From: Escherichia phage phita32
Reading direction: 5' to 3' (one strand)
Sequence record: PQ758395
DNA: 64,000 nt
Shown: positions 2,770-29,165 of the stretch, piece by piece
How positions within the stretch are numbered: position 1 is the first letter of the stretch
Layout: each line of letters opens with the position of its first letter
The notes under the pieces: generated by a model
What the model saw: the letters and a program-made list of their open reading frames with translations, nothing else
Told to the model about the DNA's origin: nothing
The model's database searches: none
Made by a program: the position numbers and the translations under genes

Positions 2770-3164
2770 TGATTACAGGTGTGAAGATTATCCAATACCA
2801 CCTAACCAAATTGGAAGATGCTGAAAAAGAGCTTGCAGAAGTTCTGAATAGTGGATATACTTTGTTATCATGCGCCTGCTCAGACACCTACGTTGTGTGG
2901 ACACTTACTAAGAAGGAAGAGCCAGCATGGATCTTAGTGCCAAACCCTAAGATTATTAATGAGGTGGATGACTACTCTCATGACGGCCTGTCGGAAGACT
3001 GGGAAGTATGGGAAGGTGGTGAAAACCCTGCACCAGGTAAGTGGGTAAAATACAAACTACGTAGCGGTGCACAGCACGCTGGATACTCTGATAACATGGA
3101 CTGGAGTCATTCTTCACCGGAATCATTGGTAAGTGCATATGATATCATAGCTTTTAAGGAATAA
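2769..3164 (+). CDS. hypothetical protein
   Basis: ORF translationally coupled (TGATGA overlap). Confidence 0.45.
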   Translation: MITGVKIIQYHLTKLEDAEKELAEVLNSGYTLLSCACSDTYVVWTLTKKEEPAWILVPNPKIINEVDDYSHDGLSEDWEVWEGGENPAPGKWVKYKLRSGAQHAGYSDNMDWSHSSPESLVSAYDIIAFKE

Positions 3165-3176
3165 GGAGAAGGCGGT

Positions 3177-3659
3177 ATGTCAGATTTTATGTGGAAAGTA
3201 GGTTATGCCTCTCCTGAAATGTGCGAGGCTTGCTTTGTAAAAATAGGCCGCGAGGATATTGACAAAGTAATCTTTAAGTTTCGTGATGTATCTGTGATCG
3301 GCAACCGAGTGCTTAAGCACTTAAAGAATCTGAAGCTCACCAAAAAGAAGTTCTTCGGACTTTTCGAAGAGAAAGTTGATGCTTGGACCCATTGCATTCA
3401 GGAAGCTAAATCTCACTACAGTGCTATCGTTACCCCAGAACGGGTAGCCAAGATGGAAGGATTAATCAACAGTACAGAGTTTGAGTGCCTAAAGGCTGCT
3501 CTTAATAGTTATCCAAAGTGCCTCAAACACCTTGACAAGTATGTAGAAAAGGATGGGGAAATGTATCTCACCCTGGACGCATATTATGAGATGCAAGAAA
3601 TTTTAAATTTAGATTTGACATTGGTATCCACCGAGTATACAATAGGTATCCGGGTTTAA
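3177..3659 (+). CDS. hypothetical protein
   Basis: ORF with GGAGAAGG SD; followed by intrinsic terminator. Confidence 0.45.
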   Translation: MSDFMWKVGYASPEMCEACFVKIGREDIDKVIFKFRDVSVIGNRVLKHLKNLKLTKKKFFGLFEEKVDAWTHCIQEAKSHYSAIVTPERVAKMEGLINSTEFECLKAALNSYPKCLKHLDKYVEKDGEMYLTLDAYYEMQEILNLDLTLVSTEYTIGIRV

Positions 3660-3665
3660 CACTAG

Positions 3666-3692
3666 GCCCTGCCCGAAAGGGTGGGGCTTTTT
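3666..3692 (+). terminator. rho-independent terminator (GAAA tetraloop hairpin + T5)
   Basis: GCCCTGCCC-GAAA-GGGTGGGGC 9-bp stem with two G-U pairs followed by TTTTT; same 22-nt hairpin recurs at 15391. Confidence 0.7.
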
Positions 3693-3710
3693 GCATTAGG
3701 AGACAGCAAA

Positions 3711-4475
3711 TTGAAATTTATCTACAAAGAACACTACCACAAAGGTGTTGTGTGGAGCCTATTTGACGGGTCTGGTGGTGCAGTCATTGACTGGGCAAAA
3801 GCTGGGTACCTGTGCCTGTGCTTTAATGCAGAAGGTGCTGATCACGGCAGTTATGCAGAGGTGATAACCGATCATCACAACATTCACTATGTGGATTATT
3901 GGATTGATCCATGGTTCCCTCAGGAAACTTTTTGCATGTATCCAGCTCCAGACTTTATTCTTGCATTTCCTCCGTGCACGCATTTAGCGGTATCAGGTGC
4001 TGCACATTTTAAGAAAAAACTGGCTAAGGACCCCATGATCCAAATTAATGCTGTAAAGGATGCTCGGGTTGCGGAAGAGCTGGGAGAGATTTACGATTGC
4101 CCGTGGCATGTAGAGAATCCTGTGGGTGTTATGTCCACACTGTGGCGTAAACCTGATTACCGTTTTCATCCTTCTGACTATGGTGGGTATTTACCGGAGG
4201 ATGATGTAAACCCTTGGTTTCCTGAATTTATAGCTCCACGTGATGCCTATCCAAAAATAACTTGCGGCTGGATAGGTAATGGATTTATAATCCCGCCCAC
4301 AAAACCTGTCCCGCAAATAGTTGACGCGGTTAGCGGGTATTCCATGCAACACGCCAAGCTGGGTGGAAAGAGTGCAAGAACGAAGATGATTCGAAGTCTC
4401 ACACCACGTGGCTGGGCAAAAGCCGTATTCTTAGCAAACGAGCCTGTAGTAAGGAGCAGAATTAATGGGAAGTAA
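3711..4475 (+). CDS. putative DNA cytosine-5 methyltransferase-like protein
   Basis: Track ORF starts GTG 3681 inside the terminator; TTG 3711 has AGGAGA SD 7 nt upstream. Motifs resemble C5-MTase I (LFDGSGG), IV (FPPCTHLAVSG) and VI (HVENPVG); short for the family and PCT rather than PCQ. Confidence 0.35.
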   Translation: MKFIYKEHYHKGVVWSLFDGSGGAVIDWAKAGYLCLCFNAEGADHGSYAEVITDHHNIHYVDYWIDPWFPQETFCMYPAPDFILAFPPCTHLAVSGAAHFKKKLAKDPMIQINAVKDARVAEELGEIYDCPWHVENPVGVMSTLWRKPDYRFHPSDYGGYLPEDDVNPWFPEFIAPRDAYPKITCGWIGNGFIIPPTKPVPQIVDAVSGYSMQHAKLGGKSARTKMIRSLTPRGWAKAVFLANEPVVRSRINGK

Positions 4476-18398: not shown

Positions 18399-18588
18399 GC
18401 TTAAATCTGCATGGAACATCGCTGTGGGGGACGAGATCCGCATCCCAGGTGGAAAGACCATTATGAAGATATCACGTATCGAGTATGAAGGTGATCGTGT
18501 ATTTCATATCTTTGCAGAAGATGGCCGAGAAATTTATATACAGGCAGGCTCTCACATCTATATCCGTAAGAAAGGGGACGACAAATGA
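18385..18588 (+). CDS. hypothetical protein
   Basis: ORF with AAGGAGGG SD. Confidence 0.4.
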   Translation: MQMFKLKSAWNIAVGDEIRIPGGKTIMKISRIEYEGDRVFHIFAEDGREIYIQAGSHIYIRKKGDDK

Positions 18589-18917
18589 CAGAGATCATCG
18601 TTTCAACTGCAGGGTATGTATTCCTGACAATCATTGCGCTGGCTATTCTGGTGGCGGTGTATGGATTTGTTATCCTGCCTATTCTTGAGACATTTAGTTT
18701 GTGTCGGTGCTGGAGAAAAGCTTACGGACCACAACCGTGGAAAGACTGGTTCCATTTGGTGCGTATAGCGTTCTCTTATGCCTATGACCACTCTAGCAGT
18801 GCATGCGTAACCGGGTACCATGCCTACAACTGGAACTGGGAAGGGCTGGGGAGATGGACTGTTACAAAAACTATACCCTTACGGTTGTATAAAGGAAAGA
18901 ACACACTGGGAGCCTGA
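18585..18917 (+). CDS. putative membrane protein
   Basis: N-terminal hydrophobic helix IVSTAGYVFLTIIALAILVAVYGFVILPIL; AAAGGGGA SD. Confidence 0.45.
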   Translation: MTEIIVSTAGYVFLTIIALAILVAVYGFVILPILETFSLCRCWRKAYGPQPWKDWFHLVRIAFSYAYDHSSSACVTGYHAYNWNWEGLGRWTVTKTIPLRLYKGKNTLGA

Positions 18918-18929
18918 TATTTTAAGTTA

Positions 18930-19500
18930 TCAGGTTGCCAGAGATCAGGAGGATTTCTAAAATGGATTTCCTCCTTTTGATATTTTACCTACCAGGATAT
19001 TTTAAAATCCTTAGAAAATCAGAAAATGGATCGAAAACTAAAATGGATTTTTCAGAGCAGGCACGACGAGATGAACCACTCATCCTATCGTTTGCACCAT
19101 ATTCCAGACCACCATTACAGATTTCCCGCACATGCTCACATCCTTCTCCTAGAACTTCCCCCACTTACCCTTGACCTTTTATGGTAATGATATAACCACT
19201 ATCTTGAAGTTGCGGTGCAGCTTTCCAAGTACTCGATCTGTTTTTCGTTTCAAAGATTGAATTTTCTGAAAATTTTTCTCGATAAATTTCTCAGTACTCG
19301 ATCTGTTTTTCGTTTTCTGAATCGGATTTTCTGGAAATCGTTCCGGCTCTCGACCTGAAATTTTTGGGGACGAAATCGATTTTTCGTTTTCAGAAATGGA
19401 TTTTTAAAATTTCTATATGGGAATATTTTAGTGGATACTATTTTATAGGAAATTGTTACGGAGGGTAATTAGCGTGCTAATTAAATTTATTAAATGCGAG
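18930..19500. repeat. ORF-poor region with short direct-repeat families
   Basis: AAATGGAT(T/C) four times (about 18961, 19024, 19040, 19405); TACTCGATCTGTTTTTCGTTT twice (19221, 19293); TTTTCGTTTTC variants. Confidence 0.4.
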
Positions 19501-19518
19501 GAGTTCTAATTTAGAATT

Positions 19519-19537
19519 TTGAATGATAATCATTCTC
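19519..19537. promoter_or_regulatory. Fur-box-like site 1
   Basis: ttgAATGATAATCATTcTC matches 15 of 19 positions of the Fur consensus GATAATGATAATCATTATC. Confidence 0.3.
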
Positions 19538-19552
19538 GTTTGCAGAATAACG

Positions 19553-19575
19553 GGCAGGCCCGGTGATTGTCTCCC
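19553..19575 (+). repeat. GC-rich 23-bp element GGCAGGCCCGGTGATTGTCTCCC (left copy)
   Basis: Recurs degenerate at 19696-19712 and as an exact inverted copy at 29118-29140. Confidence 0.45.
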
Positions 19576-19655
19576 GGCCCCTGTTGCCCCGGCTTGTTAT
19601 TATAGTATCACGCAGGACAAAGAAAGCAAGGATTTTTTGCATAAATTTTTAGACG

Positions 19656-19674
19656 ATAATGATAACCGTTCTCA
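19656..19674. promoter_or_regulatory. Fur-box-like site 2
   Basis: GATAATGATAAcCgTTcTC matches 16 of 19 positions of the Fur consensus. Confidence 0.3.
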
Positions 19675-20059
19675 TTCTATCTAGCGCCCATCCCCAGTGA
19701 TTGTCTCCCCCGTCACCAGGGCCTGCCGTCCTTTCGATAGGTATATTGTGCCACCTGGCGGGGCCGCTGTCAACACCTTTCAAAAAAAAAAAATTATAAC
19801 CAGGTGCGCCCACTGCCAGGACCTGGCGGGGCCAACCTGGCAGGTCCGCGCTATAAAGTGAACAGCTACAGAAGAGGTACAAAAATGAAAGGTAATGCTA
19901 CTCACCTGGAAAATAGTAATTGATGATACGGAAGCTATCGCCCTGGTCGAGAAGGCTAAAACTGAAGCACCGGAACATAAAGAAGAGTACGAAAAACGGT
20001 GGTGATCTGGCAGGGCGGCGGCAGGTGGATTCTATCATAAAAATAATTTAAAATAATTG

Positions 20060-20883: not shown

Positions 20884-21279
20884 ATGAATAAGAACGTACG
20901 CCGCATCATGAACGAACTGGCAAACGATGAAAAAATTATTGACATGCATTTGGTCAACATTTGCCGCCGTTGTGTAACATACAACAACCGCGCCGCAAAA
21001 GCGCGTGAGATGAACGCAAAAGGCACCTTAAAGCCCTTTCAGGTGGTTGTAAAATCTATAACTAATGCAGCAGGCCAGGCGCATGATCACAACAACGAGA
21101 GCACTAATATTGATCCGTCTTACGTAATGAAACGGATCCGGACTTGCAAGAATAAAGAGCAGGTGTATAACGTCATAGATTGGCTTGATTCCATGGGCGA
21201 CGTGGTTTACAATAGATTTTCTGCAGCTATTGAAATTCAGTTAGACAGGTTGGACGGGAAAGTACTAAAAACTTACTGA
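20884..21279 (+). CDS. hypothetical protein
   Basis: ORF with GAGGAAAAG SD. Confidence 0.5.
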   Translation: MNKNVRRIMNELANDEKIIDMHLVNICRRCVTYNNRAAKAREMNAKGTLKPFQVVVKSITNAAGQAHDHNNESTNIDPSYVMKRIRTCKNKEQVYNVIDWLDSMGDVVYNRFSAAIEIQLDRLDGKVLKTY

Positions 21280-21290
21280 GTTTATTTTTA

Positions 21291-21327
21291 GATGGCCTTG
21301 ACTCCAGGGCCATCAATAAAGTAAACT
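21291..21327 (+). promoter_or_regulatory. palindrome-embedded promoter (GATGGCC-TTGACT..-GGCCATC, -10 TAAACT), copy 1
   Basis: 7-bp inverted arms flank the -35; near-identical copies at 21912 and 25629. Confidence 0.45.
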
Positions 21328-21359
21328 AATCCCAGTTAAGCGAAAAAGGAGGCTTGAAG

Positions 21360-21558: not shown

Positions 21559-21900
21559 ATGACTACTATGACCGCCGCAGAAAAAGCTATTCAGGTTGCA
21601 GCACTGAAAAAACAGATCGCAGACCTTGAGAACAAGATCGATAACTTTGAAATCGACGAGGACAAGTACGACGAAAACTATGATGAATGGTTAGACGAGA
21701 TCTACGGCGAAATTATGATCGGAAACATTTCTTTTCTTCCGTCGCGTATCCTCAAGGAGCTAGATCCTATCGCTTACCGCTGCGGATTTAGCGACTACAT
21801 CGACAGCCTGGATATTGAGGACGATGAAGAATACCAGGAATTACAGACAGAGTTGGAAGAAGCAAAAGAAGAGCTTGCAGAACTGGAAGAAAACGAGTAA
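21559..21900 (+). CDS. hypothetical acidic coiled-coil protein
   Basis: ORF with AAGGAGA SD; highly acidic C-terminus. Confidence 0.5.
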   Translation: MTTMTAAEKAIQVAALKKQIADLENKIDNFEIDEDKYDENYDEWLDEIYGEIMIGNISFLPSRILKELDPIAYRCGFSDYIDSLDIEDDEEYQELQTELEEAKEELAELEENE

Positions 21901-21911
21901 ATTTATTTTTA

Positions 21912-21948
21912 GATGGCCTTGACGCCAGGGCCATCGATAAAGTAAACT
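21912..21948 (+). promoter_or_regulatory. palindrome-embedded promoter, copy 2
   Basis: GATGGCC TTGACG CCAG GGCCATC .. TAAACT. Confidence 0.45.
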
Positions 21949-21989
21949 TTATACTGTTAACACTGAACTAATACAGAGGAGTTAAAACC

Positions 21990-22235
21990 ATGGCAGCACT
22001 AATCACCAAATACTATGCACCGACCAACACCAAAAGCGCACGCATCTTGGTAAAAGGATTCGGACGTAAAAAGGTTTACACCTGGGATTATGCCTTAGAC
22101 ATGGAAGACAACTACACCAACGCGATGACAGATTTTATTAATGAACTAAATAAACAGATCTTAACCAATTATAAGGTGACCGACATCGCCTATGTTGGGG
22201 AAGGTGGGATCTGTTTTGTCGGTATTGTCAAATAA
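21990..22235 (+). CDS. hypothetical protein
   Basis: ORF with GAGGAG SD. Confidence 0.5.
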   Translation: MAALITKYYAPTNTKSARILVKGFGRKKVYTWDYALDMEDNYTNAMTDFINELNKQILTNYKVTDIAYVGEGGICFVGIVK

Positions 22236-22247
22236 GCTGTTTTTCGG

Positions 22248-22267
22248 TGGCCCTGGTGGCAGGGCCA
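22248..22267. promoter_or_regulatory. variant palindrome TGGCCCTG-gtgg-CAGGGCCA
   Basis: 8-bp arm hairpin/operator followed by TATAAAG; related to the GATGGCC..GGCCATC family. Confidence 0.3.
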
Positions 22268-22309
22268 TCTATAAAGATAGTTTATTAACACCATGAAAGG
22301 AGAAAGTAC

Positions 22310-25416: not shown

Positions 25417-25617
25417 ATGAGCAACAATATCCGCGTTATTAACTTCAAAAAAGAAGAAAAAATTGCCGTGCTGATTGACGGTCAAGAAATCTTCAAGGGC
25501 TATTATGAAGATCATCAAACGGCGATTAGTATCACTCGCGTGATCGGTTACCATAATTTCTACCCCCAAGGCGCTGAGGCAGCGGTTAAACGAATCAAAG
25601 AGATTGTAGGCCTGTAA
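25417..25617 (+). CDS. hypothetical small protein
   Basis: ORF with AAAGGAGAAA SD. Confidence 0.5.
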   Translation: MSNNIRVINFKKEEKIAVLIDGQEIFKGYYEDHQTAISITRVIGYHNFYPQGAEAAVKRIKEIVGL

Positions 25618-25628
25618 ATTTATTTTTA

Positions 25629-25665
25629 GATGGCCTTGACTCCAGGGCCATCAATAAAGTAAATT
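25629..25665 (+). promoter_or_regulatory. palindrome-embedded promoter, copy 3
   Basis: GATGGCC TTGACT CCAG GGCCATC .. TAAATT; near-identical to 21291 copy. Confidence 0.45.
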
Positions 25666-25707
25666 TTAATCGTGATAAAATAATCAGTGCAAAAAGGAGT
25701 AATGATC

Positions 25708-29117: not shown

Positions 29118-29140
29118 GGGAGACAATCACCGGGCCTGCC
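29118..29140 (-). repeat. GC-rich 23-bp element (inverted right copy)
   Basis: Plus strand GGGAGACAATCACCGGGCCTGCC is the reverse complement of 19553-19575. Confidence 0.45.
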
Positions 29141-29165
29141 TGTCATATAAGAACTATAAAAACCT

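Follow-up and report, generated by a model that had tools for sequence, protein, structure and literature searches.

Escherichia phage phita32 is an rV5-like phage of the genus Vequintavirus, and the 64,000-nucleotide (nt) stretch of its DNA analysed here (record PQ758395), referred to as the window, contains a gene-poor region of 960 bp that separates a gene for a 110-amino acid (aa) protein (18585-18917, + strand) from the next solid gene. Relative to rV5 (about 116.7-118.0 kb), the window is in inverted orientation, its + strand being the minus strand of rV5. The annotations of these 960 bp disagree among the relatives: naam has none, PMBT16 has a row of tiny open reading frames (ORFs) and rV5 has ORF199 and ORF198. 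In this region lies a non-coding stretch of roughly 600 bases, read here as a cis-acting DNA module, which is present in single copy and conserved across the whole of the Vequintavirinae. The order of its parts is identical in every lineage: three to six GATATTW boxes with AAAT(C/G)G-TTTTC repeats (block A), a spacer, three repeated units, AT-rich DNA and one to four Fur-box-like palindromes.

The three units lie in tandem on the + strand, with start-to-start spacings of 65 and 74 nt. Unit 1 (19226-19290) has the core GTACTCGATCTGTTTTTCGTTTCAAAGATTGAATTTTCT followed by GAAAATTTTTCTCGATAAATT, and unit 2 (19291-19364) the core GTACTCGATCTGTTTTTCGTTTTCTGAATCGGATTTTCT followed by GAAATTTTT. Unit 3 (19365-19415), whose first half-site has diverged, reads GGACGAAATCGATTTTTCGTTTTCAGAAATGGATTTTTAAAATTTC. 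The 21-mer TACTCGATCTGTTTTTCGTTT is present in exactly two copies, at 19230 and 19295, and the related CGATTTTTCGTTTTC is found at 19377; the initial annotation had recognised all three but placed them at 19221, 19293 and 19378, which is 1 to 9 nt off. Its count of at least four copies of AAATGGATY also stands. There are exactly four in the window (18960, 19024, 19041 and 19394, the last in unit 3), all on the + strand and none outside this region. Such a total is ordinary for 64 kb (2.35 expected); their packing within 443 nt on one strand has a rough p of ~2e-7. When the array is aligned with itself at an offset, units 1-2 match units 2-3 over 118 nt with 72% identity (E = 6e-11). Because the tandem units align with one another in this way, relatives appear to match at two places per record, and there is no second genomic copy. 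Tandem Repeats Finder (TRF) did not detect the 65-74-bp units, its sole call being a 12-nt, two-copy array. The GATATTT boxes, at 18916, 18979 and 18996, are a repeat class absent from the initial description and form the tightest triple among the 14 + strand copies in the window.

The core of the unit is 38 nt long (GGTTCTCGATCGATTTTTCAAAATCGAGATCGTATTTT) and has the form GGTTCTCGATCG-TTTTC-ATCGTATTT, or, as a pattern, GG-T-CTCGATCG-NN-TTTTC-N4-TC-N3-ATCGTATTT; each unit has a GAAAAATTTTT tract in addition to its core. The cores of different genera align without gaps to the consensus t.GGttCTCGATCgatTTTTCa.ttTc.aaAtCGtATTtt, and most units end in GAAAAAATTTTT. Since the alignment is gap-free, the two motif classes of the initial annotation are not independent iterons but the halves of a single unit. 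The second half-site, ATCGTATTT in other genera, has drifted in Vequintavirus to (A/T)TNG(G/A)ATTTT, that is, to AAATGGATT.

By megablast, the one part of the region with matches in other genera is a 72-nt downstream piece that contains a Fur box. The loci reached through this piece, in Seunavirus FENT2 and the unclassified Vequintavirinae phage ABPH49, are gene-poor stretches of 1.2-1.4 kb with the same architecture. A degenerate two-unit pattern run on IMG/VR led to Mydovirus (Klebsiella phages KNP2, KpS8 and KPP-1), Avunavirus (Av-05) and Certrevirus-like loci, and the Seunavirus unit array alone, used as a query, matches PVP-SE1, GAP31, 4MG, Mydo, Av-05, CR3, CR8, CR9 and members infecting Erwinia and Serratia. 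A hidden Markov model (HMM) built from the other genera only has the three units of the window as its top three matches in 64 kb (19292-19331, E = 1.8e-4; 19228-19264, E = 0.05; 19375-19395, E = 0.14). The unit count is always three. Unit starts are 64-78 bp apart across all lineages and the distance from unit 1 to unit 3 is 133-143 bp, and this architecture stays while the flanking genes vary between genera. Neither the HMM nor a 17-mer with up to three mismatches finds further unit copies in the window, and every phage contig, those of 146-153 kb among them, has the single-unit pattern at just one locus; the unit is thus not a dispersed promoter or regulator motif. Among bacterial genomes, the two-unit pattern has 89 matches, spread over unrelated phyla and none with the fuller signature or Fur boxes, and these were rejected as counterparts.

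Block A precedes the units. Its core (18996-19055, + strand) consists of GATATTT box 3 (18996-19002), an inverted AAAATCC (19004-19010) and the short repeats GAAAATCAG, AAAATGGATCG and AAAACTAAAATGGATTTTTC, which include AAATGGATC at 19024 and AAATGGATT at 19041. Box 2 lies at 18979-18985 and box 1 at 18916-18922, both on the + strand. The AAATSG short repeats and the GATATTT boxes make up one class, represented in other genera by AAAT(C/G)GTTTTC tandems and GATATTW at matching offsets. In most lineages GATATTW boxes are found at about -317, -263, -252 and -236 from unit 1, and in eight of ten the last box is 234-239 nt before it. Since the last box keeps this distance in most lineages, the length of the spacer is conserved though its sequence is not. 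In the window the spacer (19056-19225) is hypervariable, with free sequence and indels of +1, +1 and -2.

Twelve Vequintavirus relatives were aligned with the window, and diversity was computed over the 13 sequences. Positions 18945-19055 and ~19231-19440 are near-invariant and 19056-19230 are hypervariable. Pairwise diversity is 0.03-0.06 in the repeat blocks (19000-19049, where it is 0.03, and 19250-19400), 0.04-0.10 in the flanking genes and 0.20-0.29 in the spacer. The repeat blocks are under selection and are conserved as strongly as the flanking genes. The only ORF that the initial annotation placed in this region, 18935-19174, does exist; the statement that it has no Shine-Dalgarno (SD) sequence is wrong for the internal ATG at 18962, which has AGGAGG (18947-18952) 9 nt upstream. 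The frame that starts at this ATG, ORF199 (18962-19174), is cut to 7-35 aa in four of the 12 relatives and is frameshifted into unrelated C-termini in the others, and a protein-coding reading of the stretch was rejected on this ground; its AGGAGG doubles as the left arm of a conserved hairpin (hairpin 2, below). No ORF is conserved there, and the repeats persist far beyond the genus with their order and spacing fixed, so that the refuting condition set in the initial annotation came out in favour of its reading. Further downstream, the ORF198-like frame (19523-19684) encodes 53 aa in the window and is open for 92-96 aa in the 12 relatives (132 aa in slur12). It is probably no gene, because it lacks an SD sequence and contains an internal DNA repeat; yet it is annotated in rV5, FV3, Gotham and others.

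Two hairpins form the left edge of the module. Hairpin 1 (18906-18941, + strand; inverted repeat I5) covers the stop codon of the upstream 110-aa gene and has GATATTT box 1 inside it. Hairpin 2 with its tail spans 18944-18990 on the + strand: the arms AGGAGGA (18947-18953) and TCCTCCT (18969-18975) belong to a stem-loop at 18944-18981 that is followed by TTTTGATATTTT, and the loop contains the first AAATGGATT as well as the ATG of ORF199. The RNA fold of 18900-18995, which includes both hairpins, has z = -5.9 relative to shuffled sequence. Pairing in hairpin 2 is kept by a two-sided change, GGAGAA/TTCTCC, in locus L005, and A-to-G changes give G-U wobbles in L001, L004, L010 and L011; its fold has z = -2.2 to -5.9, the loop is long, and three T residues of the tail are lost in L005 and L007. 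The terminator scan does not list hairpin 2 because its loop exceeds 8 nt. Hairpin 2 is terminator-like and is a candidate for the end of the upstream operon.

The right-hand part of the module is AT-rich. The least stable 60-mer of the 64 kb, at 19399-19458, abuts unit 3 (nearest-neighbour free energy -63.7, mean -79.7, z = 3.7) and is a candidate DNA-unwinding element. DNA of low stability flanks the units in most other lineages as well, and A/T tracts are phased at ~11 bp in six of nine. Between units 1 and 2 lies TCGATAAATT (19279-19288), which we take to be an exact copy of the high-affinity motif of H-NS; it is invariant in the 13 Vequintavirus sequences. A linker and a promoter-like site with a Fur box (19459-19548, + strand) form the right edge of the module, outside the coordinates of the initial annotation. 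Upstream, at a distance of 10-18 kb and on the same strand, are the genes for a Dda-like helicase, a primase/helicase and a DNA polymerase, and a DNA methyltransferase gene is also found upstream on the + strand. The latter (3681-4475) matches the PHROG family 'DNA methyltransferase' (E = 1e-86) and has no Pfam match; given the GATC/CGATCG in the unit cores, its specificity could be of importance. In Seunavirus, Mydovirus, Avunavirus and ABPH49, an acidic protein of ~250-276 aa with no Pfam match is encoded directly upstream of the module (L015 1130-1957, L016 1237-1995, also L018 and L023), and the 3' end of its gene overlaps the first GATATTT boxes. This protein is a possible binding partner of the module; searching the window with it (~270 aa) by tblastn gave no match. 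An ORF downstream of the module in ABPH49 (L016 ~3134-3391) may, by eye, encode a C4 zinc-finger protein of the TraR/DksA type; its translation at these coordinates contains stop codons.

All three units, the three GATATTT boxes and the AAATGGAT repeats are on the + strand. Since primary sequence is kept in a fixed register and in one orientation, and since the spacer keeps its length, the module is most simply understood as duplex DNA recognised by proteins in a complex of fixed geometry. Based on this arrangement, we tentatively read it as a protein-binding array that is either a replication origin or the control region of one, an identification that is plausible though held at somewhat less than even confidence. 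One or more sequence-specific proteins, of phage or host origin, would bind the repeats and fold the ~560 bp into a nucleoprotein complex of fixed geometry, in which the two repeat classes (the boxes and short repeats of block A, and the three units) would be held apart by a spacer of fixed length and free sequence. The complex would most likely mark the replication origin of the phage. The adjacent AT-rich DNA would then melt, aided by transcription from neighbouring promoters, and melting would let the T7-type primase-helicase and the PolA-type polymerase load. Protein binding, complex formation and origin function are all what we infer from the sequence.

In its logic the module resembles iteron-type origins, such as lambda ori, P1 oriR, P4 ori/crr and oriV of the pSC101/RK2 type. 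These also have direct repeats in one orientation, a second and shorter repeat class, adjacent AT-rich DNA and nearby promoters, and are present in single copy. In P4 crr, directly repeated units of ~70-120 bp carry short recognition sequences, as the units do here. The module differs from these origins, whose iterons are ~17-22 bp long and one to two helical turns apart, in the size and spacing of its units and in having no visible initiator gene or host boxes. A second likeness is to the primary origin of T7, where the tandem promoters phi1.1A/B and an AT-rich region are used by gp4 and a PolA-type polymerase. This phage likewise has a fused primase/helicase and a PolA-like polymerase, and its module is likewise a tandem array followed by the least stable AT-rich DNA and by promoters. 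Unlike those of T7, the units are on inspection not recognisable promoters for host RNA polymerase, and a phage RNA polymerase is not known to us from this group.

The suggestion of an origin in the initial annotation stays plausible, but several observations weigh against it. No initiator (Rep) gene is recognisable beside the module, where the flanking small proteins have no Pfam match, and neither a DnaA box (TTATNCACA, up to one mismatch) nor an IHF consensus (WATCAANNNNTTR) is present in 18900-19500. The unit spacing of 64-78 bp far exceeds the ~22 bp of classical iterons; the block A boxes alone lie 7-18 bp apart. The position of the least stable DNA shifts, being after unit 3 in some lineages and in block A in others, and the phasing of A/T tracts is lacking in three of nine lineages. 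Cumulative GC skew has no extremum at the module. The best change-point in the co-oriented + strand gene block of the window (1-33000) is at ~19.0 kb, where GC skew falls from 0.126 to 0.059 (p = 0.0013), a step opposite in sign to that of a classical bidirectional origin; it is taken as the boundary of a transcription unit or gene class and not as evidence on an origin. Finally, the tight linkage to a Fur-box promoter suits a transcriptional role just as well. In the rV5 paper the origin could not be located by skew analysis, and a 'non-coding' box is marked (PMC3606486). No prior description of the element was found in the papers covered, among them those on rV5, PhiTE, KPP-1, CB7, Septuagintavirus and bovine phages.

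Among the rival readings, the strongest takes the module for a regulatory or insulator array upstream of promoters, which we consider possible but rather unlikely. The repeats would be operator or enhancer sites and the A/T tracts bends or UP-like elements, through which a regulator would control the adjacent promoters, namely the rightward Fur-box promoter and leftward sigma-70-like promoters, at the boundary where the replication-gene operon gives way to the small early genes. The promoter-like site at the right edge has TTGAAT at 19519-24, the Fur-like palindrome GAATGATAATCATTCTC at 19521-37 and CAGAAT at 19543-48. The layout AAATTTTTT, TTGAAT, Fur box, cAGAAT and hairpin is conserved across genera, and the main Fur box stands 257-298 nt from unit 1 in every lineage; both facts suit a regulatory array. 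So do the leftward sigma-70-like promoters at the module, among them TTGACA-18-GAGAAT between unit 3 and the Fur boxes in Seunavirus, the terminator-like hairpins with their compensatory change at the left edge, and the boundary suggested by the skew step. A comparable arrangement is found at rrnB P1 (UP element and phased Fis sites), where repeated sites and A/T tracts similarly stand at a fixed distance upstream of a promoter, with AAATTTTTT as the UP-like element in the module. Unlike rrnB P1, the module extends over ~560 bp, its motifs are unique to the locus, and no Fis or IHF consensus is present. The unit motif occurs at no other promoter in the genome, which would be unusual for a temporal regulator, and a length-constrained architecture of ~560 bp would be very elaborate for promoters with such small visible products. 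As sigma-70 promoters, whose hexamers are 16-18 nt apart, the units do not fit: the distance from CTCGATC to TATTTT is ~21 nt and the -10-like TA is lost in Vequintavirus (by inspection). A reading of the units as tandem sigma-70 promoters was rejected on the same spacing and on the loss of the -10-like TATTT, and the promoter scans do not list them.

The window has two Fur-box-like palindromes, GAATGATAATCATTCTC (19521-19537) and GATAATGATAACCGTTCTC (~19655-19673), within 19503-19620 and 19640-19760, respectively, and downstream of each is a GC-rich hairpin whose loop reads GGTGATTGTCTCC. Three to four tandem Fur boxes are found in L017, L020, L033 and L035. The layout looks like a Fur-repressed promoter that drives a small RNA. 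The GGCAGGCCCGGTGATTGTCTCCC hairpin element has a third, inverted copy at 29118-29146 on the minus strand, where no Fur box accompanies it; its 29 nt are 93% complementary to 19547-19575, and possible readings are an antisense target and a paralogous gene for a small RNA. Between the small early genes, a 55-nt cassette, TTTTTAGATGGCCTTGAC.CCAGGGCCATC.ATAAAGTAAA, occurs four times (21276-21330, 21897-21951, 22231-22285 and 25614-25668) and looks like a hairpin overlapping a promoter-like TTGAC element. Host Fur, bound to its one to four conserved boxes at a fixed distance from the three units and the easily melted DNA, might gate transcription across or beside the array according to the iron status of the infected cell, and would thereby gate origin firing or the transition from early functions to replication. 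The whole non-coding kilobase would then be an iron-sensing switch of a virulent phage, which seems improbable.

In another alternative, also improbable and slightly more so, the repeats act as RNA. They would be transcribed from a promoter-like site at 18935, by read-through or from leftward promoters, and the unstructured RNA would bind or titrate a protein or yield small RNAs. The common orientation of the repeats is that of the sense strand of the surrounding genes, a sigma-70-like site (TTGCCA-17-TAAAAT) is present at 18935-18963, and a long AU-rich hairpin can be folded from unit 3 (z = -3.0). The subfamily also offers a precedent in the pseudo-ToxI of PhiTE (Certrevirus), a non-coding repeat locus that is transcribed during infection (PMC3475682). 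This locus, with 36-nt ToxI-similar tandem repeats beside tRNAs, structural genes and the terminase, is in another genomic context and is not homologous to the module. RNA structure gives no support to a function as RNA: the Alifold consensus across ten lineages has -6.3 kcal/mol with a covariation term of 0, the minimum free energy of the unit array cannot be told from that of shuffled sequences on both strands (z = -0.12 and +0.14), and no Rfam family matches the window or five other loci. A spacer that keeps its length and not its sequence would be unexpected for an unstructured RNA. With these tests negative and with no conserved ORF, the proposal in the initial annotation that an ORF-free stretch with an ordered repeat array is best read as protein-binding DNA holds. 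Two specific RNA candidates were also rejected. A CsrA sponge, suggested by AUGGAU motifs, was removed because other genera have ATCGTATTT in place of AAATGGATT and its GGA, and because no structure is conserved; ToxI-like antitoxin repeats fail with the lone 12-nt, two-copy call of TRF and with the PhiTE locus being elsewhere and unrelated.

A packaging (pac) or terminus site for terminase is very unlikely. The pac site of P1 has GATC-containing repeats around a central region, which the module recalls, and the modules of other genera have 4-6 GATC per 225 bp, as against 1.1-2.2 locus-wide. The module in the window has just two GATC, and GATC is common genome-wide (5.4 per kb). A GATC/Dam cluster as the essence of the motif was rejected on the same count and on the modest enrichment. 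The sequences of several database records, such as EC152, phiWec189 and VLCpiM5a, begin within the module or close to it, but starts inside repeats are expected from assembly breaks, and other members are reported to be circularly permuted with no fixed end. In KPP-1 the terminal repeat of 514 bp is at 116,316-116,829 (PMC9862379), ~8 kb from the module at ~124,975-125,976. The module lies among early and replication genes, not beside the terminase. Least credible is the partition-like (centromere-like) site of the initial annotation, which has only the generic likeness of direct repeat arrays to centromeres of the sopC and parC type: these are virulent phages without a plasmid-prophage stage, no lysogeny module is reported for PhiTE (PMC3475682), and neither the ten largest ORFs of 1-24 kb nor the flanking small proteins, in a window that covers 64 of ~137 kb, include a ParA/ParB-like or par-type protein.

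The analysis defines a precise cis element for the whole subfamily, with named motifs, a fixed number of units and a fixed spacing. It also corrects the annotation: many GenBank records place small ORFs on this kilobase that very probably are no genes. The Vequintavirinae are a large subfamily with wide use in phage therapy and biocontrol, the targets being E. coli, Salmonella, Klebsiella, Cronobacter and Pectobacterium. The module is the best candidate so far for the replication origin of these phages or for a master control site. Through its link to canonical Fur boxes, it also suggests that phage development is tied to host iron status, which would be unexpected.

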